Assembly (NCBI GenBank): GCA_039621445.1
Contig: CP154954.1
Location: forward strand, 34,321,737 to 34,385,736
Length of the DNA stretch: 64,000 nt
Source: Euglena gracilis
Lineage: Eukaryota
Direction: 5' to 3'
Below are positions 26,996-50,244 of the stretch, piece after piece (the stretch's first letter is position 1; every line of letters begins with the position of its first letter). The notes below the pieces were generated by a model that saw only the letters and a list, made by a program, of their open reading frames with translations, did not search any database and was not told where the DNA came from. The translations under genes were made by a program, and so were the position numbers.

Positions 26996-26999
26996 AATT

Positions 27000-27860
27000 C
27001 TGGAGGGGAAACAAAAACAAAATACACCCATTAACGATTTCCTGGGAGGGAACCCCAGCTTAAAGCGTTATCAAAGCGCTTTTACGCTTTTATGGGTGAT
27101 TTTGGACAAAATGGAGGTACCCCCCCTGAAGCCACCACTGACCAAGTGGTTGACGCTTTAATTCAACTGTTTCAATTTTCAAAGGCCCAAGCACGCAATG
27201 CATACAGTGCTATGCTATTAATCCCTGGCTTTGGGGGCCTGAGGTTCCATACCATGTTAGCACCTTATAAAAGGCTTTGGAACCAAAACCTGGAGAAATA
27301 TGGTGCATTCTGGGATCCACTCCCAATCCTCCTGGGGCTGGCACAGTCCCCCCTGCCCTCTGATATTTGTACATTGCGTACACAACTCATTTTCTGTTCA
27401 CGCATCCTCTGTTTATACAGAAGTTCAGATTTGGCACAGGTCCAAAGAACCACCAGTGTGTTGGGGGGGCACCCTACATCAAAATTAAACGTAAAGGGCA
27501 AAAGCTCCGTAAGTGGGAGAGAGTTGTCTCCATTCCCCAGTGCCCCCAAATCAGCCCCTTTCATTTAATGATGGCTTATGTGGCAGCAACACGTTTCTTT
27601 ATGAATCCTGGGGGCCCCCTGTTAATTACGTTAAAACCCCCCTACAAAGCCATTAAGGCAGATACCATTGCTTATATCACCAAAGAATTTTTGACCAAAC
27701 AGGGGGTACCCCCCCCCCCCCAGGTTTGGGGACCCCACTCCACCAGAGGGGCATGGGTTGGTTTACTCAAAAAATTGGGCCTTTCTGCCCAAGAAGTTTG
27801 TGAAATTGGTCAATGGAAGGGGGTGGAGGCTTTCACAGCCAATATCAAAGACTTGGTGCC
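27000..27860 (+). pseudogene. DIRS tyrosine recombinase (frameshifted)
   Basis: YRSSDL (catalytic R), IKRKG (K), HSTRG (HxxR) and GQW in the expected order across ORFs 27092-27568 and 27367-28344. Confidence 0.88.
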
Positions 27861-28599
27861 CAAGGTTCTTTGGAGAATGCCCTGGCCCCCCTTTTTTCAG
27901 TGCACAATCTGGCCTCACAATGACAAAGTGCGGAGCCCGAGGTATCTCGTACTCCCTCGAGGCAGACCGAGAAGGGAGGAAGGGACACCGAGGGCGAAGC
28001 ACAAAGACATTGTGAGCACGACACCCCGACCCACATACGAAAATTTGTCTTCAAACGCCCTCGGTCAGAAGATGGGGGCCAGGGGGAGGCAGAGGGGGGG
28101 GGGGACCCCCCCAGGGGAAAAGACAGCGCCATGGTCGCCACGTCGGAGACAATGCAGCCAACTCCGGCGAGGCGGCACTAAGCGGGACCTCCTAACCCAG
28201 CGCAGCGAACAATCACACAACAAACCGCCGGCGAGCAAGGCATGGCCTCACAATGTCTTTGTGCTTCGCCCTCGGTGTCCCTTCCTCCCTTCTCGGTCTG
28301 CCTCGAGGGAGTACGACTTTGCGCGTCTGTCCTTTGGAAGGTAAATACGGAATGTCAATGAACAACACCCAGAGCCAAAAGAGTACCAAAACCAGAAAAA
28401 AATCCAAGTCTACGATTTGAAGCGCAATGCCATTTGCGGTTTGTAAGACAGTGAAGCGATCGACTCGGCAATCTGTACAACGGGCGGATCATTTAGCGCC
28501 ATCTGGGGGACCTGGTGGTGCGGTTTCAACGTGACGAACCGATGCACTCTGGGACCTTTAGGGAACAACGAGGACATGACCAGGAGGGCGAAGCACAAG

Positions 28600-29229
28600 G
28601 GCTGGGTGAGCGCTTTCAAATTTATGTACCATCCATGATTGCTTCTCCAAAAATTGTGCAGTTTTTGACGAAAATTTAGATCCAGGCCCCCCCACCCTTC
28701 ACTGGAACTGTGTGGACACAAAATCTCTGTTGGGATGGGCCAAAAATGGTGGCCCACGGGCCTCTGCAAGAAAAGGCTTTAGAGTCAAAAACTGTTCTTT
28801 TACTGGTTGGGGAACGGGCACCTGATAATCCCAGCTGTGGGTTTTATCAAGGTCTAAAAATCTTTGAGGGTGTTGGTGAATGCCCTTAAAAGTCGTAGGG
28901 GGGTGCGGTTTGAACGAATTTGATCCAGAATTGCAGCCATTTTTCGACAGTTGAGGTGATTTGCAACCAAAAACTTTCCTATTGATTTTCTAAGGGTTTT
29001 CTTTTTTTTTTGAGGTGGGACTGGAAGTTTTCCTTCCTCCAAATTTATCACAGCTCCCAAGTGGGGAATACTGAAAACCTTCCTTGGTTCGCTGTTTTTG
29101 CGGATACTTCGGCCTCGGTTTTTTGTTGAGGCGGCCGCCGGGCTTCGAAGCCAAACTTTTCAATGTCTTCTTTTTTGTCCTTGTACTTTTGCCAGTGAAC
29201 CTTGCAATTCATTTTTTTCAGATTCCTGG
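28600..29229 (-). pseudogene. Decayed fragment of a second DIRS (RT C-terminus/RNase H)
   Basis: INLEEGKLPVPPQK...MAAILDQIRSN...LRAFTNTL aligns to LNFQEGKLQVPPQK...LAAILGQIRCN...LRAFTDAL of the intact copy. SSSEGWGGLD..FWR is RNase H-like. Confidence 0.8.
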
Positions 29230-29230
29230 T

Positions 29231-29579
29231 TCTTGCGTGCACAATCAATTGATATTTTTTGTAGTCTTGTACCAGTGCATTGGGTGGGCAAATAACCCTG
29301 TGTGTGAGATTGGTTTGAAATTGGTGGGTTAGAGTAGGGACTTTCTTAGGTTAATTAGGGAAAAATGGCAAGTCCTACTGTGGAAAATTGGTCGGCCGGT
29401 CTTGAAAATTTCAAAGAATCGGCCCAGCAAGGTCAAAAATTTAGTTCAGGCCTTCCAGCCGAACCACAGTAATATTTTCCCAAGGTTAAATTCGACTGAA
29501 AACCAAAAAATGGTATTTCAGTGATTTTCGGCCCCACTCAGGCAGATTTTGGACAAATTTTGGGTTAGGAACCCTTTAC
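29231..29579 (+). repeat. ~350-bp repeat, inverted partner of 39514-39864
   Basis: TCTTGCGTGCACAATCAATTGA...GGGTTAGGAACCCTTTAC is the reverse complement, with substitutions, of GTAAAGGGGTCCTAACCC...TCAATTGATTGTGCATGCAAGA. Confidence 0.92.
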
Positions 29580-30499
29580 ACTCCCCCACTTAGAAAAATA
29601 TCGGGGAGATTTTGAAAAACGGAAGTAAAAAAGAAGGGGTCCGAACGAAAGAAACAATTTGGTTTGCGAAAAAAAGAAGTATGTGTGCGGTTGGTAAGAG
29701 CAACGAGAGGGGGGGGGGGTGCAGCCAAAAAGGCCACCCCGCGTAGGCAACGGCGGCGGGGGGGTAGCCCAAACGGGCCACACCGCACCCGGGGGGGGGG
29801 GGGATGATGCAACGGTGCAACAGGTGATGCGGAAAATCAGTGTGGGGCAACGGTGCGTGGGCAACGGTGCGGCACAACTCAGCTGCGTACGCCGTCGCCG
29901 CAACCGCCGCCTCCCACTCGAGGTCGTTGCCACGGTACCGCGTATGTGTGAGTCGTGTGTTCACAATCACAATATGGTATGCTATTTTTTGTCCCACGCA
30001 CCACACGACACTCATGCTTAGAATGACACTTTGCGGGCACCCAGGGCGGGTCAGGTTGCAACTACGAAAGTTGCACGCCGAGCCACAATGGGGCCTAGGC
30101 ATGGTTTCGCGTTTACAACCCTTGCGAACCGTTTTTTTTTTTTTGACTAACCGTCTTTCAAGAGATCTGGTGGTTAGACTTCAGGGTTTTTTGATGTTTA
30201 GGCTAGCCTTCCGTTAGGGATTCTTTCTCTTAAGGAGAAAACTCCTTTTTTTGTTGGTTGGGCCATTTTTTTTGTTGGGTTTTTGCTTAATCCCTCTTTG
30301 AGGAGCAAGTTATGCAACTTTTTTGTTGGGGCGATTGTTGAATTTCGTGATCTGTTGCTTGTCGCGACCAAACACCAAAAATCAGAATCAACGAAAACAA
30401 CCCCGCAACCGCGGGATTGGTTCCCCGCAATGACAATTCATCACTTTTCCCACAACCGTAACGGGAATGTGACTCACGGACCCTTTTTTGTGGGGGCGT

Positions 30500-33400
30500 C
30501 ACATCAACCCGTGCCCTCCCGGGCCATCTCTCAAATCTTGGTCAAAAATTTCCACCACTTTTAAAGAAATAAAATGTGCTGAGAAATCTGGCCCTCTTTT
30601 GCTTTTCAAAAAGCAAATCCAAATCTGTGAAGTTCTCACCTCCTTGCCATTCCAAAAATTGTTCCTCCGAACCCCGAAATTCCTTGGGTGGTACTTACGG
30701 GAGCCTCACCGACAAAATTGTCGGCCATGTCCCATGCCAGGGCAAGTTTCGTTCCAAAAATTCTCTGAAAATCCTGCACACCGTCCTTTACGGGGGGGTT
30801 GGGTTTCACCTCCTCTCCGTAAATAATACCTTTTAATTCCCTGAAATTGTGTCGGTACAACACGTCGACTGTTCGTTGGAACGCCCCCCACTCACTCGCC
30901 TCCGAATGAGTGGGGCTCATCCCCATTTTGTTCTTTCCAACTTTATTCCTTTCTTCCACACAACACGACCCGTAAAATTGAACAGATTCCACCTCCCACA
31001 CTTGCCCAATAAAAGCGTCAGATTTTGTGCCTTGGGTAAAATGGGCAGACTCAAAATTTTCATTGGTCGACCGTTCAACCTGTTTTTTCTTCTCTTTCCC
31101 CAAATTGGCGGAAGAAAATTGAAATAATTAACTGTTTTCCACTTGGGAGAATTGAGGGGTTTCAAAAGGCGTGTCAACCCTCCCCTCTTCCTTTTCCACC
31201 TGAAAATCAACACTTCCACCACCGTTTCCCAAAATCTGGGGTTCATCCAAATCCCAAATTCGCTTACGTCATGGGTCATTCGTGAGGGGGTACCCTGGGG
31301 GACCAACACCAAACCCTCCCCCTTTTCCTTTGGAATATGCCTTTCCTCTTTCCCGTCCACCTGAAAAAAGACCAAGTCTGGGAATCGGTATTTTTTATGT
31401 GACGTGCCACCAAAAATGTTTCCACCAAAACGGCGAAATTGTCCTTTGGACCCGGGGATGGTGAACTTGCATCAAACACGAACGGTTTGGCAAACCCTCC
31501 GCCATTCCCCGTATACGAGTGGGCTTTTTGTAGTCAAAGGGACTGCACTGACAAAAATCAAAATTCAAAAAAATCAGCCATTTCAAAAATTCACGGTCCT
31601 TCATGAGGCCGTTTCGGGGAACTTTAATGAAAATTATGAGGAGTTGTAAAAACTTGGTGAAGGAAAGTGTCATTTTGTGCGGGAATCGGCATACTCCAAA
31701 TTTCTTTCACACGTGGTGGGGCCATGACCATATTTCGTTTGCAGCACGGATGCAAAGGTCAAGTCCACCCCCCTCCAAATTTTGTTCCTGTAAAAAGCTT
31801 CAAACCCTTTGGTACTTTTGGCCCAAAAAATCGCTGGACTTTGTCCACAAAAGTGTTTGACTGTGGCGCAAACATTTTCTGAAACAAATTTTGCGCTGGG
31901 GGCACTTGAACAAAAGTGCTGCCCCTGAATCGTTGGCCACCATTTTTTCCTTGGGCAGTTTCCTAACCTTTGCCATTAAAATTGGTCGTCCCGCCCCCCT
32001 TGCCTCGTCCTCCCCTCCATGGGCATGGGGCCGAAAACTGGGTGTGGGGGGAGCTTGATTTGCATCCAGAATTTTTGTCCAACAGTTAGAGGCATTATTT
32101 CCAACCTCACCACAACACTTACATGGTGCTCTGATTGCACAGGTTGTGTGGTTGGGGTTTGGGAGCGGTGCTTCTTTCACATATGAAGAATTTTTTGACA
32201 GCGCCCGCCTTTCTTGACGATTTCTGGTGAAATTCTGAGAAAAATCCTCGTTCCGCGCTTTCTGAATGAATTTGGTCCCCCCATCCAATCGGGGGTTGAC
32301 TCGTTTCAGGGGGGGGCACCTGGCCCTTTAAATTCCATCCCCCCTCCGTTTGTTCAAGGCATCCCTGTGTCATTCCCATGATTTGAGCGGGGGGGATATG
32401 AGAATCGTTGGGGGAAAACAGCAATTTTTGTCCAAATGACCACCCATTGAGTAAAAGAAGCGAATTTTTGTCCCCTGCCAACTCCTTTGTGATTTTTTTC
32501 TTCGCTCTGGTTTTCATTCTTCCTTTCTTTGTGAAAAGTTTGGGGAATTTCCCGTCTTAGCACATGACAGGTGTGCATGAGATTTGAAAAAATCCTGAAT
32601 CGTCAACAATTCTGTCTCAAAATGTTTCCAAACTTCCCCAAAATACGTTGTTGAAAATCTGGACAGTTTCGTTGTAAAAATCTGCCAACGAAAAGAAAAT
32701 TCAGGCCTGTGACCTGAAACCTGTTGATTTTTGCCTCTTTTTCCACCATGTCCCAAAATGGGATACTAACAAAAATTGAAATCTGGCAACCAAAAACGGT
32801 GCCTTCCCCCATCATCCCTACCACTGCCCCCATCCCTGTGAGCAAAATTTGCACCGGATCCACAGAGATGGAAATTTTTCATTCGTTTCAAGGGGAAATT
32901 TCAGCACGCTTCGTTGGGGGGCATTCAAAGGGGTTATTGTTTGTGAGGCTGTTACTTCCAAACTTACGGAAGGAAAATCCACCATTCTGGGGGAAACAAA
33001 AAACAGAGTGAGGGGGGTGAAAACTGTTGTGGGTTGGGTAATGGGAACGTGCAAAGTGTGGCTTTGCCAACAGGGGTAGAGACAACCTTATGGTGCTCCT
33101 CCCATTTGGGCAAGACCACCACTCCAGCACTGTTGCCCGAAAAGCCTACCTCTGGGCCTAGGTTGCCGGAGTAGGGATCGACGGGGGAAAAATTGAAAAA
33201 TTGAAAAACGAACCCACTCACTCTCTCTGGGCTTCTCCTTCTCGTTCCTTCAGGTCCCAACCCAGGCCTTCTCATCGCTTCAAGTCCCAACCGTGGTCCC
33301 AACCCATAGCTCAGTCCCAACCCATAGCTCCTGGGTGGGGTACTCGTCGCTGCTCTGGGTGCTCCTGGGCCCCCCTGCACCGCCACCACAGCGGTGCGGG

Positions 33401-34600
33401 GGAGTGGGCCCCCGGACGCCGCCACCACAGCGACGCCGGGGTTGGGGGTCGTCCTTCCCGCGGTGTGAAAACAAAATTTGCGGCCAGTGATCTGGGCAGG
33501 GGGAAAACACTGCCCACGTTGACCCCCTTCCGCAATAAACTGGGATTCTGTCTGTTTGAAAATTCCGAGACCCTCCAATTGAGAAAAGCATCGCTCAATC
33601 CCAATAACCAAAGTGGAAATTTATACAAACCCTTTAATGTTCAGCAAAACTGCCTGAAACGGCGTTTGATTTGAGTTTTCCAAACCCAAAACTGGTAATT
33701 TCTCGTCAAAAAGTTCTTGCCTTTTGGCGCTGTCGTCCAAAGTTAAATTGGGCTGGAATTCCACTGAATTTTGATCACCTTTGACCAAAGCGATTTCTAT
33801 TTTTGAACCTGGGGGATCTGAAGTTTTTTCCAAAATTGCCCAGGGAAATTGACAACAATCTTCGCCAAGCACCATAAACTGAATTATTTCGTGCACTCTC
33901 CTCCTTGCACCTTCTTACCAAGGATCTTTGTTTCCCTCCTCCATCTCCGTTTGCACGGGGGGGGACTGAAATTTGTGTGAGTAGGACAATTCCCGTTTCT
34001 CCTCCACCAGCCAAAAAAGTTGATCCGTGCCCACTCCCAGCCTGGCGGGGCAAAAGTGAAAAATTTCCCGTACGGAGGATTCCACACAGCTTCGACAAGT
34101 TTAGCTGAAAAAATATGAAAACCACAGCAAAAATCTGTGGCACAAGGGAAAGTTGTTCCGTACAGAGGATATCACCCATCTCTGACCGTTTTGGCTGAAA
34201 ATCTGCTAAAGTCACAGGAAATTTCTGTGACAAGGAAAGGGAAAATCCACTTTTTTCACTTGAAAACTGAAAGATCCTTGGGTGAGACAACACCTGGGTT
34301 TTTTTTGTGGGGGAAAATCCGTGCCACTTTGCAAATGGGACCCTGCCTTCGACAACAAATCTTGCTGAAAATGAATTCCGTTGGCAAAAACTGTGGGGAG
34401 ACTTCAGAAAATTCCAGAAAATTCAGGGTCCTCATCGTAATTCTTGCTGAAGTTGGCCAATTTAACTGTGAAATACATTCTCGTGTCTGAAAATTCAGTG
34501 GTCACCCATGAAAATCTGCTGGGATTTCACTTTTCTGAAAAATCTGTGGTGATGCAACAAGTAAATTTGGCAAAGAATGATATTTCTGAAAATTCTGCAG
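30500..34600 (-). mobile_element. Heavily decayed LTR-type (gypsy-like) retroelement: gag knuckle, protease, C5-MTase-like domain
   Basis: CKCCGEVGNNASNC (CCHC remnant) and ANDSGA (aspartic protease remnant) in ORF 31800-32288. PNPPV pre-RT-like motif at ~30790. Boundaries uncertain and no LTRs found. Confidence 0.6.
31360..31810 (-). pseudogene. C5 cytosine DNA methyltransferase-like domain (degenerate)
   Basis: Collinear LKLFTGT (motif I-like), DLTFASV-(P)C-x-EY with compensating indels (motif IV-like), RNLEYADS, FIKVPRNGLMKDREFL (ENP position), DFCQCS..YKKPTRI.G and KYRFP. Confidence 0.65.
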
Positions 34601-34902
34601 ATGGAATGCACTGTTTCACCAAAATTTCCCCACCTGACACTTCTGAATGCCTACCATTCTTCGGGTTCTTTAGTAGCTGTGGTTGGCTGTGGTTGGGGGT
34701 TGTATGCTGGCACACCCTTGTCGCGTGTTGTATGTGTCCACAGCTTCTGTACCGCGCGCAGCTTCAATACCGCTCAGCTTCGACAATGTTTTTGTTGTTG
34801 CTTCGGCTTGAACGTTCTTTCTTGTCTTTTTTCTTTGTCATTCTTCTGCTTCAGCTGCCTGGCGCGCCTCGCTCTGGCCGGAGGATCCGGGTAGGACCTC
34901 CA

Positions 34903-35055
34903 TGAAAACACTTCCTTTGTTCGATGTTTTTGCGGACCCTTCGGCCTCGGCTGTTTTTTGAGGCGGCCGCCGGGCTTCGAAGCCTAATTTTTCAAACTTT
35001 TTCTTTTTGTCCTTAGGCTTTTCCAGTGCACCTGGAAATTCAGTTTTTTTTTCAA
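34903..35055 (+). repeat. ~150-bp direct repeat of 29072-29225
   Basis: Shared TTTTTGCGGA..CTTCGGCCTCGG..TTGAGGCGGCCGCCGGGCTTCGAAGCC..TTTTTGTCCTT..CCAGTG. Confidence 0.85.
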
Positions 35056-35263
35056 ATTATGTTACCCGAACGACGACTGCAACGAAGGGAAACCTTGTTG
35101 TCAGTCGGTTTTAGTGCTGTTGCACTGAAAAAAGAAGACTTCTATCTTAACCAAAAACCCTGTGAGAAAGACGGAAAATGAAGTGCAGGGGGGGGGTATA
35201 AATATGAAACATTCACATAACACACACGCATTGTTCAAAACGAAATCGTTTCAGAAAGTGTTT

Positions 35264-38200
35264 ATGTTTATGTGCATCATGCTGCCTGGGTGCGGACCTG
35301 GACCAGGTCCACCATGGACGCAGCCTTCCGGCGCGCCATACCCTCAGTACCCTCAGTATGCTGAACCCCCGGTTCCGGGTGCCCCACATGCTGAGAGGGT
35401 TTCAGCCCCGGTATTCGCCGCGGCTACCAGCTGCCGGTCCGCATATGCCGTACCGGATCCATCTGCCATCCAGCAGCTGGCACCCCAGCCACCAGTGCAG
35501 CGCAGATTGTGTCTGCCCCAGTATGCAGGAGAGATGATCTTCCGCACTACGGAAATGTTGGAGCAGGACATGCGTATGTGCGCACACCCCCAAACGGAAC
35601 CATTTATGCAAGCCCTTTGGGATGCATACCGTGCTCAGTTGTTGGTGGTAGCAAACGCGCCTGTGGCTCAGTGGTGTCCCCGTGGTCAAGCCCTGATGAC
35701 GGGGAGCCGGTACTTCTCGTCGGCATCCGATTCCGGATTTGAGCCTGGCGAGACAATGATGGACCTGGGCGTGTATGTACCGCCCACGCTGCAAACGCAG
35801 TCGCCGGTGGGATCCCACACCGTGCATATGCGTGAGCACACGCCCCCACCGGTAGGTGAGGCTGTGCATGTCCCACCTGGGATGACGAGACTTATTGCTC
35901 GCCCGCCCTCGCCGCAGCGAATGCCGCCGCGCAAGCCGCCAGCGGAGCAATTACGACGCACGCGGATTACCCGCGCGGCGCATGCGTGGTCCCTGCTGGA
36001 CAGTCGGCCGTGCCCCCTGAGGCATACGTCCAACACATGTTTGCGCACTGGATGCCACAGGCATCGCCGGTCGCCCCTGACCCTGGCGTTGAGCAACGGC
36101 GGCAGTTGGATCCCATAGTGGTGGAGGATGAACCTCCCCACCGTGTGGCAGCCCGACCGCCCAGTGCACCTCCTGTCCAGACCGGGGATATCCTCCGTCG
36201 GCAGGAGACTCCCTACTACCACATGGCAACTCCGAGAACCGAGCAGGATGAGCTTGCTCGGCACTTCCTGCAGGAGCCAGTATTCGCATCTGAAGAGCAC
36301 CGGACGAGGTATTACGCCTCTCTGGCTTCCCTTCAGGGCCGTGGATACACCCCATACCATCCGTACCAGCCGCAGCTGCGGGTGGCAACCCCGGTATTAC
36401 CCCGTGAGCCCCCAACAGGTGTGGCAGTATTACCTGCCACTCTGAAGCGCGACAGGGCTACGGATAACCTTACCCCACAGCCCAGGCGACCCAGCCCACG
36501 GGACGCGGAAGGCGGTGTGGCAATGCAGGTGGAAGCTGGCCAGGATACCACGGGTGGACGACCACCGGCTGAGACCCAGGGGGAGATGGTTCGTCCTGTT
36601 GCCGCAATGCCACCGCCGATCCCTCCGGTATGGAGCCACGACCCCCTGCGTCGAAGCCAAGCCCACACCAGGCTCCTAGCCAACGCCCAGCCACGCCATC
36701 ACCGCGACGTGCAGCGGATCGGCCAAGTCCCTCCACAGAGATGGAATGGGAAGGATCCGATCCGACTCCTGCGGCACCGAGCGCCCGACCCGTATTCGCC
36801 AGACGGGGAAGGACACTGGAGAGGCTGGGGGCAAAGGTAAGGAGAAGGCAAAGGCGTGGCCGGCAAAGGTAAGGGTGAGGGCAAAGGTGAGGGTTAAGGT
36901 AAGGGTACAGGACGTGAGGAGGAATAAGAACCAGCGGAAGTCCTCTCGGACTTTGAGCAAATGCTCAGGTTCAAGGAGGAGCTGGAGGACGAAGGCTGGA
37001 GAATGCAGCACGATTACCACGTTGCAAGAAACAGCCCCGTCACCCCTCCACGAGCAGTCATCGATGTGGTATTACGCCACACCGAGAACAGAGTCAGAGA
37101 ATTACATTACAGAAATGATCTGTACGCCTTCGAAGGTGAAGGTGGCAGACCCTTGATGGATGCCCAGCCAGGTTTCTGGGAGATCTGGTTTTGGCTGGGA
37201 TACCCCTGCCAGAACTGGGGTCTCTTCAGCGATTCCACTGGTCGCAGTTACCTGCACCAACTGGGATTCCGGGACCAGCATGTGTTGGCTCGGAGGCTGA
37301 AGGCCAACATCGAATGTATTCATTCGATAGGACCCCTCGGAGTCCAGTGGAAATACTACCCACTGAAGCCCGACATCGAACGCCTGATCGGGGTGTTGTG
37401 GTGCAACAACCTCCAGGTGTGGCTGGTGAGCCATTACGGCTCAACCTTCCGCGTTCGGCGCGTTTCCCTGGCTTACCCACAGAGGTATGACCCCTGTTGT
37501 AATTACTGTAAGCAGGAATTCCCTGTCTACTCCTGGGGATTCGGCGTCCGCGGAAGCCCTCCACCGCCTCGGGATAACCCGGGTCTGGAGATGGGACGCC
37601 GCATGCTTTTGCATGTGTGCCGCGACGCCCCGGATCTCCATCGCAGAAGTCGTCGCGTCCGCAAGCAGCATATTTTTATGCTGCAGCAGTTCTGGTGGCG
37701 AGCCTGGACCACCTACGTCATGGAGGTGTATTTGCATCTCCATGACCCCCAGGAGGATAGGCCTGGTATGACAAGCTTGCTACCGGACATTGAGGGTCCT
37801 CATCGTCGTCCGGTCGTCGCCGACCTGCGCCCTAACTGGAACCTGGCTGATATCAACCTGAAAGAACATTTACGGCGACAGTTTGGCGGTACCCTCGACA
37901 GGGAGGTACTCCGCCAGTTGATGGTGCACCCGAATGCCATCCTCGACATGTGTATGCTGATTCTGGCATGAGTTCAGGAGTTCGAGGAGGGCTTTCTCGA
38001 GGTCTGGGAGGATACGCGTTACAGCGGATTCCTGGGCCCGAAAAGGCCTCCCAACGCCTGGGTGCAGCCATCATGGCCGCCACCCTGGCCCAACAGCGCC
38101 AGTAGCAGTACGCTGGCCTTTTACAGGCTGGCGGATGCTCAGGGATGCCGATGGCACCCCGCCGATCCTCGTTTGCCCCAAGATCTGCGCGCCTTCATCG

Positions 38201-39040
38201 TCCCGGAGGATGAACCTCTGGCCCGAAGGAGACGTGAGGCGTCAGTCGCTTACACCACCGCGATTCTTCGCCCCTCCGTCACCATTCTGGAGGCAGCACC
38301 GCCGTCTCGGACAGGAACGGCTGTATCCTTCGTCTCTGCCGTGCGAGCGGCAGGGGAACGATCAGTTTCCCCGGCCCCCGCGGCGGCTCCCGTCTGTCCA
38401 CCGGTAGGTGGAGACCAGGAACTCCCTCAGGAGGAAGGCGAGTTCGTGGAGGATATCCTCCACGCTGCTCTCCCTGCTCCGGCACAGCCTAGGCCAGTCG
38501 AAGAACCTGCAGGCAATATACCTGTGGCTGCTACGCCTGTTCCAACGGCTGAGCCTCCCGCCGAGGTGACTGGCATGGTCATCGAGGATATCCTCGAAAA
38601 ACATACCAGCCCCGCAGCACGCACCTCATTAGGAGGCCGTGTACTCGGCGCCGTGGTCACTGGTATCACAGCCGTGGCTGCAGAACTAACGCTACCAGGT
38701 GGAGGCGTAGCGTCAGGCTCCGCCGCCGAGGTCGTGGAGACACCGACAGTTGGATCAAGGACTGGGAGACCCCGTCCTTTGATGTCAATGATCCGGAGCA
38801 CAACACCATCCGGAGCGAATCAGCTCCGCAGCGTTCCCCACGCCAAATGGAGATGGTTGAGAACCCATTAGGGGACCCACAACTCGACTACTGGCGTGAG
38901 GTGCAAGAACGTCCAGCCGATAAAGGCAGGTGAGGCGGCAGTCTTTCAGAACCCTCGTCAGGTATGCCTGACACCCTGTTCGGTTATTTGCCCGAACACC
39001 CCTTCGAAGACCCTTTGCGGTACTCGCCGCTAGTAAGTTC
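35264..39040 (+). pseudogene. Large orphan ORF (~1200 codons, a few frameshifts/stops), probably an extra ORF3 of a gypsy family
   Basis: ORFs 35162-36118, 35986-36840, 36961-37971 and 38062-38871 join up; the last two are in frame across one TGA. Pro-rich N-terminus, GKG repeats, Trp/Cys/His-rich core. Followed by gypsy 3'-UTR homology. Confidence 0.7.
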
Positions 39041-39159
39041 CCACCAGGATGCTGCCATATGCGGGATTCCGTGCGCATGCATGCACACCCCTCTCTCCTC
39101 TACCCTCTCGCGGGCGTGCGACACGCAGCGCACAGGGCCGACGGCCTCTTTTCCTTTCC

Positions 39160-39495
39160 TTTTTCTTTTCGGCCGTTTGAGGCTATAAGGCTGCCAGACA
39201 GCACAACTTTTCTGAACTAATACAACCCCTCACTCTTCTTTATTTCCCCCCCCCCGGGGCAAATGCTGTCGCCGGCAGTAGGTGTTGTAGAGTAGGATTT
39301 CCTTTTGCGTGGTCAGGTTTGACTGGCCATGCGCCTTGCCCAGTTTTGACTGGTCAGAGGCCCTCTCCTTCAACACCCTCCGCATGGGTTGTCCTGGAAT
39401 GCCCATGAACCCTACCCCAAGTGCCTTTGGTACATCCAAACTGGGTGAATTGGTTGCTTGGCAAGGAAACCTGCCAGCCCCATTTTCCCCAGTAG
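39160..39495 (+). repeat. Gypsy 3'-UTR homologue (inverted relative to 42748-43050)
   Basis: The reverse complement shares GGAAAATGGGGCTGG.AGGTTTCC, CTGACCAGTCA, ACTGC.GGCGACAGC..TTTGCCC.GGGGGG, TGCTGTCTGGCAG.CTTAT and GGCCGAAAAG with 42748-43050. Confidence 0.85.
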
Positions 39496-39513
39496 ATTAT
39501 AATATACTATATC

Positions 39514-39864
39514 GTAAAGGGGTCCTAACCCAAAAATTGTCCAAAATTTGCCTGAGTGGGGCCGAAAATCACTGAAATACCATTATTTTGGTTTTCAGTC
39601 GAATTTAACCTAGGGAAAAGATTATTGTGGTTCTGCTTGAAGGCTTGAACTCAGTTTTTGACCTTGCAGGGCCGATTCTTTGCAATTTTCAAGACTGGTT
39701 GACCAATTTTCCACAGTAGGATTTGCCATATTTCCGTAATTAGCCTAAGAAAGCCCCCACTCGTACCCACCAATTTCACACCAAATCTCACACACAGGGT
39801 TATTTACCAACACAATGCACTGGTACAAGACTACAAAAAAAATCAATTGATTGTGCATGCAAGA
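39514..39864 (-). repeat. ~350-bp repeat, inverted partner of 29231-29579; abuts the chromodomain
   Basis: Reverse complement of 29231-29579 with scattered substitutions. Confidence 0.92.
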
Positions 39865-40030
39865 TCTATGTTATTGCGCTTGTTCCACAGCTTCCAATTC
39901 CGCTGGATATATCCAACAAAAGTTGGTGCTGGCTCCCGAGTGTCCTCCTCTGGCCCATACCCTTTCCAGCGAACTTTCCAGTAGTGCACACCCCTGTCGA
40001 CCTTGTGGTCTTTTATCTTATCGACCACAA
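39865..40030 (-). pseudogene. Chromodomain of element B integrase
   Basis: FVVDKIKDHKVDRGVHYWKVRWKGYGPEEDTREP. Confidence 0.9.
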
Positions 40031-40071
40031 AGTCGTTCGTTTCAGGTAATCTGGAACGGGCTTGAAATATC

Positions 40072-40424
40072 GGGGGTGTTCCCCCCGTGACCTCCCCGTG
40101 ACCCCCCCGTGACCCTCCCGTGACCCGAACAAGGACCCTTTTCGACGAAATTTTGTAGAAAAATTTTGGCCGGTGATGACTAATTTGATAAAATTCTCAA
40201 GCAGATTCCTAATCTTGAGGCTTAAACTTTTCAAATTTTCGCTTGGTGATTCCTAATTTGGTGTCAAAATCGTAATTTTGGGTGTGGGGATTCCTAATTT
40301 GTGGAAATTTTTCCCAAAAATTAAGGCTCGGTGATTCCTAATTTTGCTACCAAAAACGTGGCGTTCCCCCCGTGACCCCCTTCGTGACCCCCCCCGTGAC
40401 CCCCCCGTGACCCGAACCACCCCC
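40072..40424. mobile_element. MITE-like insertion with CCCCGTGA repeats in the integrase C-terminal region
   Basis: GGGGGTGTTC / GAACCACCCCC termini and two clusters of ~11-bp CCCCGTGAC repeats. Interrupts pol. TSD not resolved. Confidence 0.65.
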
Positions 40425-40649
40425 ATGGACAGGGGATAGCTTTTCAGTCTGGGGGGCTTAGGTACGGTTTGAAGCCGTCCATATGGACGTCCTCAATCCC
40501 GTTGGGCAAGGCAACTTTATATCGCCCGCTACTACCTAACCTCTCCAAAATTTTGCATGCGCCGAGCCAAAGAAGATCTAGCTTGGAAATTTGCTTTCGG
40601 GTGTGGTTATTCCGTATTCACACGTGGTGACCTGGAATATACGCAGGTG

Positions 40650-41500
40650 TGTTTTAGTTTTGTAAGAACGATTTCCGTTTGTTGGAATTAATTTCTGTGA
40701 TACGTGATTGGAGTGCATAGCGGAGTGATTCCACTTCTGCAAAACACGTTTCACAGCCGACACTGCTTCGGGCGGGTCTCTTCGAGGGTATATCCCCTGT
40801 GGCCGGAGGGTCTCGTCCGAAAACAATTTTGTACGGTGAGTGTGGTAATACCAACCCTGGCAAGGTATTGATGTGAAATAAACACCAACGAAGAAAGTAT
40901 AACCAATTCTTTCCCCAGTCAGTCAGTGAAATTGCGAAGCATATTCACGACGTATTTCACGGCTGCCTCGGCTCTACCATTGCCTTTCGGGCGTTATATA
41001 ATGGAAAAATGCTGCTCAATGCCGAGTAAACCGCACAAAGTTGTGAAAAACCACCAAGAGATCAAGGGATCTTGATCACTCAGGATTTCGTTCGGTAACC
41101 CCATTAAGCATATACATTTATCCAGGAATATGGATGTCAAAATTTGGGCTGTCAACCCTGCTTTCCGGCATGGAATGGCTACTATGTACCAACTCAGCCG
41201 ACAGACGACAACAAAAACGTAATCGTAATTTTTTTTTGTCTTGTCCTTTGCAAGGTTCATGTTCGAGAAAATCCATTCAGATGGACGTAAAAATGTCTGG
41301 TGGTACGGGAAAAAGTCCATCGTACCAGGGGGGGTACGTCTGTGTGGTTTCGCAGCCTGACAAAATTGGCACCGTTGGGAAATTCGCAAACGGCGCGAAT
41401 ATAAATCTTTTTCACTCAGTGTTGTGCAATATTTGCGACCCACTAGTGAATGAAATTATGGGGCCCGAGGGTGACCTGGTTAAACAATATTTATAACCAG
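40650..41500 (-). pseudogene. Gypsy integrase (element B)
   Basis: CQFCQAAK, FVVVCRLSWY..AIPC, GLPNEILSDQD, a KGNGRAE-like motif, and SPYKIVFGRD. Confidence 0.92.
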
Positions 41501-41829
41501 AATCCTTCCGGAAAATAAGTCACAATGGTGATGGAGAGTAATTCTCTCTGCATTCACCATTACGAAGTCTATTCGCAATGGTACTATATATTAGGTCACG
41601 CGAAAAATCACATTCGCGTAAAAATAGGGGGGTAGGAGTTTCCGTACGCGTAATGCGACGGGGTCCGGCAGTGCGTCCACGCCGGCGCCTTTCACACAAT
41701 GGTGAAAAGGCGATGATGCGATATCCCCGGGAAATAGGTAGTGAATCAGGCATGTTGTGCGCAGCGTCGGATCGACGTGCGAGCTCGTCAGCCTCAGTCA
41801 GTCGCATCACCCCTCATCCGGGTTCCCAA

Positions 41830-42082
41830 GATAATACGAGGGGGCTCGGCTGAGAGGATCCGCAACTTTTTGCGTGTGACCTGGGGCATAGATAACCACC
41901 AGGTTAAACTGGCTCAAGAACTCATGCCATCGGCATCTTCAGCCAACTGATGACATGGCCTTGTTCAGGTCCTCGGTATATCAGTGTTGAAGGCTCTCAT
42001 GATCCGTCAACACGAGTATCTGGACCAAGCTGCCTGGCTATCCAGCTGCGGAATTGCTGTGGAATAAGCACAATGGGATATG
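41830..42082 (-). pseudogene. C-terminal half of element B RNase H
   Basis: Continues from REKETY: PIVL..FRSWI, VLTDHESL, RWHEFLSQFNL and ADPLSR. Confidence 0.88.
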
Positions 42083-42501
42083 AGTGTACGTCCCCTGACT
42101 CTATTCCCACTGCCTGTCGGCCTACTTACACCCTCCCGTGGGAACAGAACCAGGAGAGTAACAAAAAAGAAAATCTTTCACTTAACTATTAGTTTTTATT
42201 GCCTTTGGGCTTATGCAGAGCACAAGGCAAAGAGAGGGATTTGTTTGGAAACTCGTTCCTCCAATGTCCTCCTATCGGAGTGTTGAACTTGAAATCTTGG
42301 TTTGCCCTTTTGGGCTAATGAAATGTGAAACAGAATAACAATACCACCTGTGAAAAGAGAAGGCAGATCCGAGATAGGATAGGCTATTCCTAATTCTGCA
42401 ACTTGTATTGCAGAACTTGGAATAGTACTATCTGGCATAACATTGTACATTCTGCAGGCTGCTGCTATGCACAGTGCCATGTTCATGCTGCCTGGTACAC
42501 A
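42083..42501 (-). repeat. 3' LTR of element A
   Basis: Direct repeat of 50255-50673, preceded on the element strand by the PPT GGGAGGGGGA. Confidence 0.95.
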
Positions 42502-43199
42502 TCCCCCTCCCAGGGCTTTGCCCGATTTCCTTACTGGACCAGGCCAGCAAGGATTCAAGCATAGCTCTAAGACTGATGAAGGTACACCAGGAAAGCATAT
42601 CTTGGGTCTGCTTCTCCATCACAAGGTTGATAAACCAGAAAGGGAAGGAAGAGAGGGGAACCTAACAACCCAAAACGCGCAAAAGAGGTTATCCGCTTAT
42701 GCGGCTAACTACTTATTGCGGTAAAGGGGTGGAAGTGGAAGAGCCCATTGGAAAATGGGGCTGGAAGGTTTCCATTCCAGAAAGTCCCATCCACCCGGTT
42801 TGGGGTGTGTCTATGACACGCGGAGAGGTCTCATTCCATAATCGGAAAAGATTGAAGGGTAGGGTGTGGAAGGGGGGGGCACCTGACCAGTCATATCTGA
42901 CCAGGGAGAAAGACCTATTTACAAAACCAACTGCTGGCGACAGCGATTTTGCCCGGGGGGGAAAGGGGAGAGGAGGGGAACTGGTCTAAAGACCTTACAA
43001 AGAATTTTTGCTGTCTGGCAGTCTTATGGTGGCCTTAAGGCCGAAAAGTAACAAGTTGGGGCTATTATTGCGGTGTGCGCGCTGTACGCTGTGCGTCTTC
43101 TTACTGGCGGCATATACCGCTGTGAAGTCTTCACAGTGCTGCGCGGGCACGATGTTGTCGATGGGGTATCCCCAGAGGCTTATACCTCAGAATAGCGGG

Positions 43200-45960
43200 C
43201 AGTGGCCCTAAAAACTGTAGATTTGGCAGTTGTGCCTTGGGTGTGCAGCCTGTAGGCTGACGGTTTGGCACTAGCCAAAAATAATGGGGGGGGGTAGGCT
43301 TTATCGCCCAGAAACATTGCCTTGCGGAATATGCATGGCACAAAAGTACTACTGGGTGTATACCCGAGTCAAAAAAAAAATTCGGCATATTGCCAAAAAG
43401 ATCATACTGAGGTGTACAACGGCAGAAAAAAATGTGGAATTGTGGCAGGCTGCTGCCAATTAACAGAACAAATGTGGTTGGTGTGGCTTATACCACTTTG
43501 AAAAACCAGAAATGAACTGTGAATGCACGTAAAAGGATGGAACATTGTTCCCGTGCGGTGAAATTCATCACAAAAAGCTGGATTTCACCATTTTTGAGCT
43601 ATGGTTCTTATAAACCCTGCAGAACGACACCATTGGTGTTGCAGATGATGACCATTGGGTCCTCCGAATTATATCGGTAAGGGAATTCCACTGAATGAAG
43701 CGGGGGGGGGCAAGAATGCCTTTGGTGTGGTAAGCAGAAAAAATACTGCAAATATGACAAAATCTCATCATGAGTGACTATGCCAGTAAGAAATACTGAC
43801 TTTTGTCAAATTTTTAGGGAAATCCCTATCAGGATTTAGGGCAGAAATGCAGATTCTGCGTCTAGAGTTGCATTTGTGTAACCAAAAGTGCAACTTTGTT
43901 GCATTTTGAGTCCTTTAAGACTGCAAATTTGCCAAGTGCACATAGTGCCTGTTGAGAGTGTCCAATAACACTGCATGTTTGCTGTTGTATGGATTTTGGG
44001 ATTTGGGTGTCTAATAACACCACATCACCCAAAAAGCGGTAAAATTGTGCAAAAGTATCGCAAAAATGCAAAAATACGCTTGAAAATACAAGTAAAATAT
44101 GTCTATGACATCTTGAGCAAAGGAAAAATTGCCATTATCAGCATATCCCTTTGCATCCCACTCTGGCATAGTGACTCATGGTCACTCCCATTAGGGATAT
44201 GAGTGCCAGAATAGGGAAAAATCACTAAAAATTGGACAAAATCAATGATTTAAATGAAAAATTGCACATACGTGCTCCTAAAAATGATTCTAGTGAGCAG
44301 AAATGACTCCAAATTGTGGGCTATAGCCCTCTGAACTGTACCAGGCCTAATAGCCCATACAGAGGGGGTAATGGGCAGAATGCTGCCAAAGGTATTAAAA
44401 AATGGCCATTAGCCAATCTGGTAACCAATGGTAATTAGCCATCAGAAACGATGTAGGGAACAGTATAGAAGCCTTTCAGGCTGATTTGCCAGTCTGGTAC
44501 ACGATCGTACAAGATCTGGCTCAAAATTTGGCTTTTGGTCGGATTGGCTTGGCTTAATTCAATTTTTCACGATCTCCTCAAATAAGAGTACCGTGCAGAG
44601 TTACAGCGATCTGTTTGCACCGCTGGACGGCTCATCGAAGGAGCTTTCGAATGAGGGGTAACATGGCCTATCGGCCAGCTACAGGCGCTGAGATACGTCT
44701 TTGATCTTTTGCCTGTGTGAGTGAGCTTTTGCTATAAGCTCCCATAATTTATTCTACAAAGACAACTTTTGGTTTCTATCTCATAGGCACTACTACGTAC
44801 AGTCAAAACCTCATGGCACGAGGTGCCAGAAATGTTGAGGCTTTTGTGGTGGTTTTGAGGCTATGCCAAAGTGACACTTATGCAAATCTGCATAAAATTA
44901 GCCTATTTGGCTTGTTTTGGCCAATTCAGCCACTTTCAGCCATGTAATATGGCTTTTTGTACCATTTTTTGAGGTCCTATGGACTTTAAACTTTATAATA
45001 TGGATTTGTGGACCTTTGGTCCTTTTGGTCCTTGCAATTTGTGCAAATTGGTCCCATGGACCCATGGACCACATGGGTAATGGCCTATAAGCCTTCCACA
45101 TCATAGGTTGTATTGGTCACAAAGACCTAAGGCTAAGTGGTCAAGTCCATACAAATGCATGTTTGAATGGATTTTCTTCATTTTCTTTTTGGGGGGGGGA
45201 GCAACTATGTTGCAGATTTTCTCAAGGAATTCAACTTATTCCCTATCGGGATTCACTTCTGTAATTTTGAGCATTTTTCCATATCGGGATTGCATTTTGC
45301 CAAAATAATAAGCCATTTAAGGCACAAAACTGCTATTTAAGCACAAGTTGGATAAGTTTTCGGGAAAAATGCAGTATTTGCAATGCATCCCAAAAACTTT
45401 ATCACGTTACTTGTGTTGCTTTGCTCTATAGAGCTTTGGGAACACCGAAATATTTTTGGTGTGGGAGTGGATTGGGTAAAAAACCCTATTCACATAAAAC
45501 TTCACTTCTTGTTTGCTGTCATCAAACAAAATCTGCAATTTGATCATGTGGTACAGATACAAACATCCATGAACATAGTTGCGGATTTCCACACATATAT
45601 CTTTAGGAATGATTCCCAAAAGAATATGGGTGGTTTGGGCATATACACATGGGTCAGAAATGCACGATAGTGCTCACACGACATTGTGAGAAAGGGGGGG
45701 TTGCTAAGGTGGGTGGCGCGATACGCCCGGGGTCTAGCGCGATACGCGCATGATATGGCGCGACACACGCGGGGGGGGGGGCAGTTGCCTCACTGCACAA
45801 CATGTGCGTGGGGGTAGGCTTGGCAGCGCGATATGCGCAGGATTCGCGCGACGCGCGGTGTGCGCAATTAGTGCTTGCGGAGGAATGTCAGCCATGCACA
45901 TCGGCATTGATGTGCGCTATGCGCTTCGGGGGGAATGTGCACATAGTGCTGAATTTGTCT
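43200..45960. other. Non-coding, DNA-transposon-like debris replacing pol in element A
   Basis: No pol homology. Starts CAGTGGCCC at a sharp boundary. GCGCGATA repeats at ~45715-45850. AT-rich. Confidence 0.5.
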
Positions 45961-46768
45961 TGCACTTGACAAAAATCGGTCAATGAATAGAGCTCTCCGT
46001 TGGAGATAGAGTGTGGGGGATTAGTTTTGATGTATATATTCACCTTTGTGTTTGGTTGGTGATTGTGTGGAAAGTTCTCCCAGAGTGCACACCATGGGGG
46101 GAAGGTGCGGAGTAGTTGTCCTGGTCGCGCATGTCGGTCTGCGGGGGTGAGTGTGTAAAAAAAAAATTGAGCATGCGAATTTTGGAGCTGCTGGGGGTGT
46201 ACAGGATTGTCTGAATCGACAAACCTGGTGGAAAACGAAAAGTTCAAAGCAGCTGGGCGACTACTCGACACCGTTTAAACTTCAGGCCTTAGGGCTTTCG
46301 TCTTGGAACCCAGTGGAACGAATGGGGGTTAAGCTACTTGTTACCCCTACCGCATGTGGAACGTTTGTGGATATGCAGTGGGTAGGGGGGGGCACTTTCT
46401 CTTTACCCCGGGTTGAAAACAGTGTTGGTGTTGTTGAAAACGGTGTTGCTGTCATCAAAAACGGTATGTAAAAGTGATGATTAGTGGAAGTTTGAGGGGG
46501 GGGAAGAATTTTGCGGTGTTGTGTGCATTCTTGGAGCGGGAATCCACTCAACCACATGGCCATACATGGGGTATCCCACGATACACCACAACTGGAAACA
46601 CAAAAGTGTTTATATGTCAAAGGTTCATGTAAATTTTGAGCGGGGACACCAGAAAATCCTTGCACACTGACCCGAAAGGATACTGGGCAGGGGATGGCTA
46701 GGGTCGCGACTCCTGTCACCTCCTTTCTAGTACCATCTGTAGTCCGTATCCTTGGATTTTTGGTTCCT

Positions 46769-49700
46769 TCACTCAAAAACCGAACAGGTGGCCATATCAG
46801 CCGTTGACTTTCTTGACGCATATACGTCTCTGACTATATGAGCGCTAAAGCGGGGATGATCCCTTTGGTTACGTGGGGTATCATCCCCCTCCCTGCCCGA
46901 AGCCGGGTGATAATCCTCGATAGAGGGTGTTCTTTGACCTACCTTGTGCCTTTTGGCTAAAGTATGATCTTTTGAACTGCGACTCATATCGCGATGGCTG
47001 TGGCTTAGGTGGTGAGAGTTCGCATAGCGACAGTTGAGGGAGGGGTGGTTGCTGGATCCGCACAGTGAACATTTTGATCGTGATTGGTATTTTGATTTTT
47101 GCGAATGCGCATTTTGTGAAAAACGAGAACTGCGTGATGAGGTTGATCCTCTTGGGCTTGTGTTGCGCCTTCGCGCTGCAGGATTTGGACAATGGCAAGA
47201 TATATGACCCTTTTTGTTACACAAAAAGCACAATTTGTCCGAAAATTCTCCTGAAGAGCGCGAATTGCGCAATTTAGATTCCGCTATAGCGGTATGTGAT
47301 AAGCGTGACACATTTTTCACAGAACTGACGTGGATAGCGGGTATTCCTGCTGTGGGGTAGCTCGTATAAGCCGACTGGATTTGTCCTAAAAGCTGTGATA
47401 GCTTCAATTGTTTGGAAACATAGTTCCATCGCTCATCGAGCGTCAAAATATGTCCTGCGAGTTCCTCTCGGTGAATTTCTTTTATGAGTTTGGGTATAAA
47501 GTGCAGTAATACTGCGTCAAATTGCTCTTTCATTTGGTTTTCGCCTAAGTCGTCTACTTCGGCTGCCAAAGAAAGCCATTTTGAGTACCATAGGTCTATC
47601 GACCTCTATTTTCGGTCATGGGGGGCATATTGCCGCCATTTTTTCTCCAGAGTGATTCTGGAAACCAAACTTGAACATGATGAAGCGTATTGCTCAACCA
47701 AATCCTGAAAAGAAATGCACCCGCGAATGACCAATTGTCTGGCGCGTTCCTTTTCATCTTTTGGTAGACAATCTATGAATTCCATTTTGGTCACCTCTGG
47801 ATTTTCGTCCTGGGTTGGTCCCTTCAATTCCCAGTAGTACTCCCAGTCACGGAAAAACTGTTTCCATGTTGTTGGGTCACCGTCCCATTGGGGCTTCACC
47901 TTTTTCGCGATAGCGATACTTCCTTTGATATCTTTTTGAGGCTCCCATGGCCCTTCGGTGGTATTCAAGCAAGTTGGGCCTGGGCGCAAAACCGCACCAT
48001 GCGCGGGTACCTCGGTGGTTGCACCAAGTGTACTTTTGGATGTATTTTGCGAATGCGCATTCAATATTCCACTTGGTGTACCGTAGGTACCTTGCAAACT
48101 TGGTGAATCGCGAATGCGCGAATGGTGATGCTGATGCATCTCAGGATCAATACCATGTGCGGGAGTGCGGCTCATACCGCAACAAAGTTCATATTCCCAA
48201 ATTTTTCGATTTCTTTGAGGGTTTCGTTTGGCTTTCTCTTGAAAACTAACCCTATCATCCAAAAAATGGTCCATTGGGACTGGTACCGCTTGGGGAGGGA
48301 CTACTGCATGAGCAGAATCGTAATTTTGTGGCAATGTGCCAATAGGCTCTGCCACAGGTGCAGTGTTAGCGCTTTTGGAGCTGGAATCTGCGGCAAGTGT
48401 GCCTACAACACCCGTATCGGGTTTTTGCTGTAAAAAACGCAATTGTGCGTGTACTTGATCCAAATTTTCTGTAAAGTCATGAAAATTTTTCTCCAAATCA
48501 TCGAGAATTTTCAGATGATCGGTGATTGCACCAATATCTTCCTGCAAGCGCTTAATACGCCTGCGGTGTTTGGACATATCGTCCAGAAGAGGGATTTTGT
48601 CAGAAATCAACAGGAAATCCTGCGAAATTGCACCAAAAACAGTGTCCAATTCTTGAACTCGTACTGCTAAAGTACGTATCGCACTGGAAATGATCTCCAA
48701 TTGTGGAGATGGTTGGTCCGAATGCAGACTTTTGACTATTTCAGCCTTTGTCTGTTCCATCAAGACCGAAACTTGCGCGGATAGCGCGATAATGTCATTT
48801 TGCAGTTTTGTGACATCCTGCTTCACCGTTTTCTCGGTGTTCATGAGACTATCACAAAATCCTTGCATAAATTCGTCATTTTCCGCGCGCATTTCAGCGC
48901 AAAACTGCTCCAAGTGTAGGGATGTGAGTGTGGGTATGGGTGTGGTCGACGGCAATGCGTCTGGGGTTGGTGATTGCACCTGAAGCAATTTTGTGCTTAA
49001 TTCTTGCATGCATATCTGTAAATCCGCTATCGCGGTTTGAATTACGGTTACATCTGTAATTTTGCCATTTGTTTCCGCACAGCGGGCATGGAACTTAGCC
49101 AAAGCGGCTTCAATTTCTACCATGTCACTTTGCCGCTGTTGTTGCAAATCCTCAAACCTACTCGCAATATTTGCGATTTGGGTGTGAAAACTTGCAACTT
49201 CAGCAGGAAATTCACCAGAATGATGAGATTTCTGCTCCAATCGAGAAAGTCTCTCCTCCAATTGTTTCACATAAGTAGGGGTTGCAAAACTTTCATGTGC
49301 TTGAGCAGAAACTTGTGCAAAATTCGCGGAATCACCGCTCAATTGGAGAATGCGCTGTTGCGCTTTCTGGAAATCAGTTGCAAGGTTGGAAAACTGCTGC
49401 AGTGTGATAAATTGTCTGATAGGACTTGGACATGGGAGCACATGGGGGGGGCGGGATAAAATTTGGTATTTCTAACCCAACCTCAATAAAAAGTGGATGT
49501 GGAGCAACCGCCTCAGAATCAAATGTGCCTATCGGCATTGGTGCGATATCTCGCTGGGGGGTAAAACTGTCAGCCAATCGGCTTTCCACCAAAAGTGGTT
49601 GAGCCTGTTGGGCTATGGGCAGCTCGATAGGGCTGCTGGACACCGATAGGTGTGGGGGAGCCCATTGGGCGGGGGGATGAGGCACCATTAGGTTTGCACC

Positions 49701-49994: not shown

Positions 49995-50244
49995 AGGAAC
50001 AAACTTAGAAGGGTGTGGCAGTGTATACTGCCCAGAGCCTCCTGAAGCTCGTACCTGTGCTTAGAAGTTGGCTCCAAACAGCTCGTGGATGCTTTGTAGC
50101 CTATAGGCTGAGCACCACTCACTGTTTGAAGTCACCTGTTCAGATGGGGGGGAGAAGGGGCGTAGGAAAGAAACCTAATCTGCTACCAAGTGTATTCCTT
50201 GATAGTCTTTCTGATTGTGAAGTATGTGTAGGTTCGTAACCTAT

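Follow-up and report, generated by a model that had tools for sequence, protein, structure and literature searches.

A long orphan reading frame adjoining the pol gene of a Euglena gracilis chromovirus, a candidate antisense accessory gene

The DNA analyzed here is a 64,000-nucleotide (nt) stretch of the Euglena gracilis genome (contig CP154954.1, positions 34,321,737 to 34,385,736), referred to below as the window. It holds a 44-kb transposon island between two arrays of a 213-bp satellite (1-14330 and 58765-64000). In this island, an open reading frame (ORF) of ~1,200 codons runs on the plus strand from an ATG at 35264 to a TAG at 38869-38871, with two more in-frame ATGs at 35270 and 35279, and adjoins the pol gene of a Ty3/gypsy retrotransposon, chromovirus B, which lies on the minus strand. 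Most of the ORF falls in block U, a 4,592-bp unit on the plus strand (35273-39864) that interrupts B's pol and consists of the ORF, a noncoding tail, and L, a unit resembling a long terminal repeat (LTR).

The ORF is read in two frames. Its N-terminal, Pro-rich part (35264-35950) lies in the frame of 35129-36118 and aligns at 85% identity with residues 12 to 224 of P0002, a 367-amino-acid (aa) "hypothetical protein" that starts at the counterpart of the third ATG (35279) and comes from a 5,563-bp metagenome contig. Past a frameshift at 35950-35953, the main part (35953-38871) is read in the frame of 35860-38871 and comprises a disordered Pro/Ala region, a GKG linker, a Trp-rich core, and an Ala/Pro-rich C-terminal part, with matches to P0003-P0007 at 43-61% identity. 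Residues 230 to 367 of P0002 match this second frame, also at 85% identity, and P0002 has five extra residues and no break where the window is shifted. Since P0002 matches both frames, it reads through the window's frameshift, and judging from this alignment, the gene occurs elsewhere in a form that is intact across it. Four premature stops also interrupt this copy (TAA at 36838-40, 36895-97, and 36925-27; TGA at 37969-71). An earlier examination of the letters, the sequence-only reading, had described a nearly continuous long ORF with a Pro-rich N terminus, a GKG-rich linker, a Trp-rich core with CCNYC...HVC, and an Ala/Pro tail. Apart from the one frameshift and the four premature stops this description held, and every part was found, all but the N terminus in the second frame.

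Stop codons are far rarer in the coding frames than expected. There were none in the 222 codons of the first frame and 5 in the 974 codons of the second, terminal stop included, compared to 21 and 31 in the other two plus-strand frames of the second segment and to ~31 per 1,004 codons predicted from base composition. The GC content by codon position is 0.68, 0.51, and 0.63. The idea that there is no gene here, only a frame opened by chance in GC-rich repeat DNA, draws on the ease with which such DNA yields long frames (ORFs of 100-236 aa occur on the opposite strand as well) and on the want of a Pfam match, of a fold, and of all but a trace of RNA. However, the 5 stops against ~31 expected, the codon-position periodicity, and the homologous fragments, which at 43-85% identity keep the Cys/His spacing of the core, bring it close to refuted, and we regard it as extremely improbable. 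We conclude that the frame is genuinely coding, that it is an orphan borne by a transposon, and that this copy of it is dead.

The coding evidence extends to the TAG at 38869-38871. The region given in the sequence-only reading continues to 39495, but no coding could be demonstrated for its remainder (38872-39495). Past the TAG, the same frame runs on without a stop for 53 codons, to a TAG-TAA at 39029-39034, which gives a possible C-terminal extension at 38872-39034 on the plus strand that includes a stub (39005-39037) discussed below. This is not significant alone, as ~1.6 stops would be expected by chance over that length, but the true end of the ORF may fall inside the stub rather than at the TAG. 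Two observations concern the ORF in other copies. At 38965, between the TAG and the tail, 4 DNA contigs with two extra bases make up 50,893 of the 59,178 depth, and if intact copies read on there, their C-terminal reading departs from that of the window. Within the ORF, 19 DNA contigs with a common consensus diverge immediately before 36592, which suggests an indel or a rearrangement in this copy or a subfamily.

Chromovirus B, the carrier, lies on the minus strand in two parts. The 5′ part (50668-58763) contains the 5′ LTR (58763-58446), a primer-binding site beginning TGG, a long gag-like region, and the protease, reverse transcriptase, and RNase H domains (51860-50668). The 3′ part (39865-42086), which is decayed, contains the end of RNase H, the integrase, and the chromodomain, located by Pfam matches to Chromo and rve and by tblastn of P0009 and P0010. 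Pfam matches to RVT_1, RT_RNaseH, and Chromo in one pol, with a weak one to rve, identify B as a chromovirus. B is colinear with the chromodomain-bearing polyproteins P0009 and P0010, and the 1,066-aa P0009, which is 71% identical over the integrase query, follows the minus strand at 51860-50668, 42086-40429, and 40067-39858. Between the integrase and the chromodomain, B has ~360 bp (40067-40429) that are absent from P0009; this extra segment is internally repeated, with 58-nt repeats at 40075-40130 and 40360-40417, and is missing from 7 DNA contigs (joint 40060|40430).

The manner in which pol ends defines block U. In six of six related chromovirus polyproteins, a conserved WNK/YNH is followed by 11 more residues to the C terminus, and P0009, the closest of the six, ends with NNIDISVNNF. 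In the window, B's pol reads ...NNID at 39865 and then runs into unrelated sequence, and the missing end, ININTF followed by a stop, is found on the minus strand at 35271-35251. In addition, 17 contigs of a DNA run from the same organism (X1) connect 35272 straight to 39865. The pol C termini, the ININTF-stop, and this 35272|39865 joint together mean that U is a discrete block that splits pol six codons short of its stop and carries the ORF in antisense to it. U begins 6 nt before the third ATG of the ORF, which is followed by the tail, 25 nt, and L. It has a GC content of 55-59% compared to 46-51% in the flanks. No target-site duplication was seen at its ends, and no Helitron-like or terminal-inverted-repeat ends were found by eye. 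To the left of the block lies S (35059-35272), which on the minus strand reads as the final six codons of pol with their stop, followed by B's 3′ untranslated sequence.

The ORF therefore sits in retrotransposon DNA directly beside an integrase-chromodomain region, as the sequence-only reading had proposed. What found no support in the arrangement seen here was its placement as a sense ORF between pol and the 3′ LTR, in the env position: B's pol, the only gypsy pol adjoining the ORF, runs along the minus strand, convergent with the plus-strand ORF, and no pol domain was found on the plus strand upstream of the ORF (28300-35300). Two other accounts of the arrangement were dropped. A simple inversion of 35059-39864, which would restore the order pol-ORF-tail-LTR, leaves the 35272|39865 joint and the pol C terminus unexplained, and a 3′ LTR of B to the left of the ORF finds no similarity there.

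The whole region is repeated DNA. Contigs of run X1 were placed on an 18-kb stretch in three identity classes, and of the 54,574 placed, 12,280 were at 99% or more, 20,167 at 95-99%, and 22,127 at 90-95%. At single positions, tens of distinct contigs overlap, which means that the whole stretch is repeated. Summed depth was 290-420 thousand in the ORF bins, compared to 284-665 thousand in the bins of B's integrase and chromodomain. Block-less relatives of B do exist: the 35272|39865 joint has a depth of 3,116, the best supported among the 15 of 155 joints listed. No loose ends were found at 35272/3 or 39864/5 among the 6 of 1,577 X1 loose ends listed, and an indel private to this copy, at 40934, was detectable in 35 contigs. 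From this pattern we infer that the S-U-K order, in which the ORF converges on pol, is usual in the family and that the composite was amplified as a unit.

These numbers bear on whether the block is a passenger, that is, a captured host gene or a piece of some mobile element that plays no role in B's life cycle, with independent insertions explaining its orientations in B and in the neighboring element A (see below). U is indeed a sharply bounded, discrete indel that shows no target-site duplication, its GC content differs from that of the flanks, the tail is found in both orientations relative to gag-pol, and the ORF protein has no similarity to any retroelement protein. However, transduced genes are typically present in one or a few copies, according to a published review (PMC7264820), and the ORF region is covered as deeply as pol. 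No full-length cellular homologue was found among 1.84 billion proteins, all six matches (6/6) being short fragments, although a paralogue in the host genome may exist. Moreover, the ORF is intronless, 3.6 kb long, and embedded in transposon DNA. We consider a passenger improbable. The single-copy host gene that the sequence-only reading had named as its own undoing was likewise not what was found, the DNA being multi-copy.

The protein itself has few relatives. At an E value of 0.001 or better, six matches were obtained among the 1.84 billion representative proteins, all of them fragments (74-367 aa, 43-83% identity), and a Pfam search with four pieces of the ORF gave no family at an E value of 0.01 or better; the label "orphan" given to it earlier thus stands. 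Other searches gave nothing further. A word-indexed search of shorter proteins returned P0002 as its sole match, a metagenome scan with P0002 found 0 relatives among 226 candidate stretches, and searches of viral contigs and phage records gave no match. A second metagenome scan, with an integrase-chromodomain alignment, gave 4 loci, all gypsy at 23-24% identity, which were set aside. Pfam searches of all three minus-strand frames of 29580-39500 found no family, and an Rfam search of 28500-43500 found no match. There was no usable match in the ESM Atlas, and the matches in PDB were low-complexity ones, at an E value of 0.011 or worse.

The one conserved feature is a C-x2-C-x34-H-x-C motif (37498-37620, plus strand), a putative single zinc site, which recurs with identical spacing in P0006 at 43% overall identity. 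The product is probably disordered for a large part, with one folded, Trp-rich core that probably binds zinc. AlphaFold2, a check suggested with the original description, was run on 441 aa and on 161 aa, but the models were unusable (mean predicted local distance difference test score [pLDDT], 35.9 and 42.1) and gave no fold. The earlier proposal of a new accessory protein, perhaps zinc binding, is borne out as far as the conserved Cys/His motif goes, and the accessory role and zinc binding are putative. It had also stated that there is no obvious signal peptide or transmembrane helix, and this agrees with our analysis: the N terminus is Pro/Gly-rich and has no signal peptide, and the best 19-residue Kyte-Doolittle windows reach a borderline 1.72 and 1.68, one of them interrupted by a stop.

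The noncoding tail (39120-39488, plus strand) connects the block to element A. The stretch 39162-39488 is 65.8% identical over 342 nt to 43051-42750 on the opposite strand, in A (E value, 1.8e-20), and a Smith-Waterman alignment lengthens the match to 39120-39488 against 43097-42750. The homology to the region just upstream of A's polypurine tract reported in the sequence-only reading is therefore confirmed, as is its statement that the relative orientation is the same, A's ORFs lying on the minus strand. It had also seen in A a stub of the end of the coding region. A resemblance of ~33 nt is visible (39005-39037 and 43131-43099), but it is too short to be significant alone, and beyond the tail, no similarity to the ORF was found in A.

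Element A (42083-50673, minus strand) is an LTR element nested in B's RNase H, which it interrupts by 8.6 kb. Its 419-bp LTRs (42083-42501 and 50255-50673) are 98.6% identical, a polypurine tract and a primer-binding site are present, and the empty site is seen as a 42075|50676 joint in one contig of run X1. The 5′ half of A (gag/protease-like) is 60-80% similar to the gag/protease region of B. No pol domain was found in 42502-46800 or in three of its long ORFs between 46772 and 50060, and the 3′ half contains no pol or ORF remnants. With LTRs and a B-like 5′ half but no pol domain match, A is a non-autonomous relative of B and not a full gypsy element. Because A gave no pol domain match and shows nothing of the ORF beyond the tail, the connection between the ORF and A rests on about 370-500 bp of noncoding similarity. 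A and B also have in common an unusually long pre-protease region on the minus strand (46769-50060 and 52573-57819). That of A amounts to ~1,100 codons in three adjoining frames, with weak coiled-coil-type Pfam matches only. Over this part of A, the first mates of a size-fractionated cDNA run (X24) map mostly to the plus strand (2.5-3.2 versus 0.3-0.5), a bias that would be consistent with the A family being transcribed in the sense direction, provided that the library is an ordinary stranded one.

At the other end of the tail lies L (39514-39864, plus strand), which is 351 bp long, begins with TG, and has a 91% identical inverted copy at 29231-29579. L is unrelated to the LTRs of A and B and has no similarity to S. 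The 25 nt that separate it from the tail are not purine-rich. Directly upstream of its other copy (29579-29231, minus strand) lies a purine-rich tract, and that copy is followed by repeat X. X is a 156-bp repeat (34903-35058, just left of S) with an 84% identical copy in the same orientation at 29072-29224.

The reading that we favor, with about even confidence, is that the ORF is an antisense additional ORF (aORF) of a high-copy chromovirus (Ty3/gypsy) subfamily, that of B, and that it probably encodes a zinc-binding accessory protein. As in other antisense aORFs, the ORF is antisense to gag-pol and is located at the end of pol, in a block that starts six codons before the pol stop. We propose that block U was acquired once, and that the composite would then have been multiplied by B's own retrotransposition. 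Transcription of the ORF, convergent with that of pol, may start at a promoter in the 3′ region of the element, for which TATAAATA, found at 35197-35204 on the plus strand of S, 60-80 nt upstream of the ATGs, is a candidate. The product would be nuclear, acting on the transcription or silencing of the element, and would not be a structural or envelope protein.

Several results weigh against this reading. First, no 3′ LTR matching B's 5′ LTR (58763-58446) was found in 28000-35300 or in 14000-64000, so that in this copy the placement of the ORF between pol and a 3′ LTR is putative. Second, the case for the arrangement as the norm of the family draws on the 15 of 155 joints and 6 of 1,577 loose ends listed, and the summed depths are not copy numbers. 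Third, there is almost no RNA. In two cDNA runs, X21 and X22, of each of which ~5% was examined, 40 and 44 reads fell on the whole 18 kb, and in X24 there were 293 on both strands; the mean depth over the ORF was 0-0.62 in the first two runs and 0.04-2.98, on both strands, in X24. With so few reads, no transcript, start, or strand can be called for the ORF, so the search for an ORF transcript that had been suggested at the outset was made and gave no call. A leaf-litter metatranscriptome contains 7% of the sampled words and was not counted as evidence. Fourth, neither AATAAA nor ATTAAA occurs on the plus strand in 38871-39900. Fifth, the function assigned to the product is pure inference, with 0 domain matches and AlphaFold2 confidence of 36 and 42. 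Finally, two features are oriented as in a separate element with a sense ORF: A carries the tail in the sense direction, ~250 bp upstream of its own polypurine tract and opposite to B, and L is oriented as a 3′ LTR would be downstream of the ORF, with a purine-rich tract at its other copy.

These last two features lead to an alternative: a different LTR element related to A, with the order gag-(pol)-ORF-tail-polypurine tract-LTR, would carry the ORF as its sense ORF3 in the env position, and U would be a 5′-truncated or recombined fragment of that element, comprising the ORF, the tail, and the beginning of its 3′ LTR (L), inverted in B. In keeping with this, L begins with TG and follows the tail in LTR orientation, and the purine-rich tract is immediately upstream of its other copy. 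Reversing U on B's strand would also place the ATG of the ORF 6 nt past the pol junction, a compact, retrovirus-like overlap. On the other hand, there is no pol upstream on the strand of the ORF, and A, the supposed relative, has neither an ORF remnant nor a pol. L is unrelated to the LTRs of A and B, the 25 nt before it are not purine-rich, and the element with its other copy has an unrelated internal region. Among the joints and loose ends listed, no different, better-supported upstream flank was found at 35273. A weak point in the same direction is that none of the nine protein matches from the integrase searches (0/9) sits on a contig of 5,563 bp, the size of the P0002 contig, which has ~4.4 kb beside the ORF start. 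We judge a displaced sense ORF3 to be unlikely.

As an antisense aORF, the ORF would have counterparts in other lineages. Antisense ORFs between pol and the 3′ LTR are known in maize Grande (gene23), rice RIRE2, Silene Retand, Phaseolus PvRetro13, and Boty (PMC7264820). According to the same review, the proteins of these ORFs lack informative similarity and are nuclear in some cases, they are suspected of a regulatory role, and for antisense extra ORFs no function has been demonstrated in any system. Like the plant aORF-3R of Grande, RIRE2, Retand, and PvRetro13, the ORF lies just past pol on the strand opposite to gag-pol, belongs to a high-copy family in which most copies may have it, and has a product without informative similarity, of the kind usually guessed to be a nuclear regulator that binds nucleic acids. 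Unlike them, it is very long (~1,200 codons) and shows neither the TRP28 (PF04195) nor the SMC domain, no piece of it having a Pfam match at the cutoff used. Furthermore, the block cuts off the last six pol codons, with no long spacer from pol to LTR, and the 3′ LTR was not located. The antisense ORFs of Retand mostly carry TRP28, and Retand is described as a non-chromovirus (PMC11963269); the carrier here is a chromovirus. A full-text literature search for a chromovirus with an antisense ORF found the Retand paper only, which does not show that such ORFs are absent.

Outside the flowering plants, a likeness is found in brtn of the Boty-like (BcGypsy1) elements of Botrytis cinerea (Zhao et al. 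2011, as cited in PMC7264820 and PMC8365987), also an extra antisense gene of a Ty3/gypsy element; the comparison is by description alone, and no homology is claimed. With the env-like ORF3 of errantiviruses and Athila/Calypso, the ORF has in common that it is large and adjoins the end of pol, but it is on the opposite strand, has no signal peptide, has hydrophobic windows of 1.72 and 1.68, and lacks an env-family Pfam match. A gene convergent with pol and presumably driven from the 3′ end recalls HBZ of human T-cell leukemia virus type 1 (HTLV-1) with its antisense promoter in the 3′ LTR (as cited in PMC7264820). However, there is no sequence relation to HBZ, the product is much larger, and the promoter and transcript are putative here. 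The arrangement as a whole would resemble that of Grande gene23 or HTLV-1 HBZ.

The extra genes of LTR retrotransposons are rarely understood, and this one would offer a tractable case for the role and capture of such genes: the family is high-copy, block-less relatives keep the acquisition visible, and the Cys/His core is conserved. A further-reaching version of the antisense reading would make the ORF product a new type of accessory factor, a large, mostly disordered, zinc-binding protein of the nucleus, expressed in antisense from the 3′ end of the element, which counters silencing or boosts transcription of its carrier and the acquisition of which enabled the very high copy number. This we hold to be a long shot. 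For annotation, the ORF should be masked as transposon-borne rather than entered as a host gene, and it should not be labeled an env-like ORF3.

Other features of the island were also noted. The two X copies, which are direct repeats, bound a unit of ~6 kb (29072-35058) that has no domain matches on either strand and no similarity found to A, B, or the ORF; 29580-34902 contains no pol or ORF remnants. On its minus strand, a TGG-starting stretch follows the right X, and a purine-rich tract and L precede the left X. The unit could be a non-autonomous LTR element or a recombination product. A DIRS-like retroelement lies at 23190-28345 on the plus strand (RVT_1 match, E value of 3.7e-19). The same ORF of this element has a weak match to a Dam-type methyltransferase (E value of 0.0012, below Pfam's cutoff), and the element has inverted repeats of ~125 bp at 23531-23657 and 28155-28279 that are 87% identical. 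The two satellite arrays that enclose the island are opposite to each other in orientation, and the right one has an internal switch near 59960.

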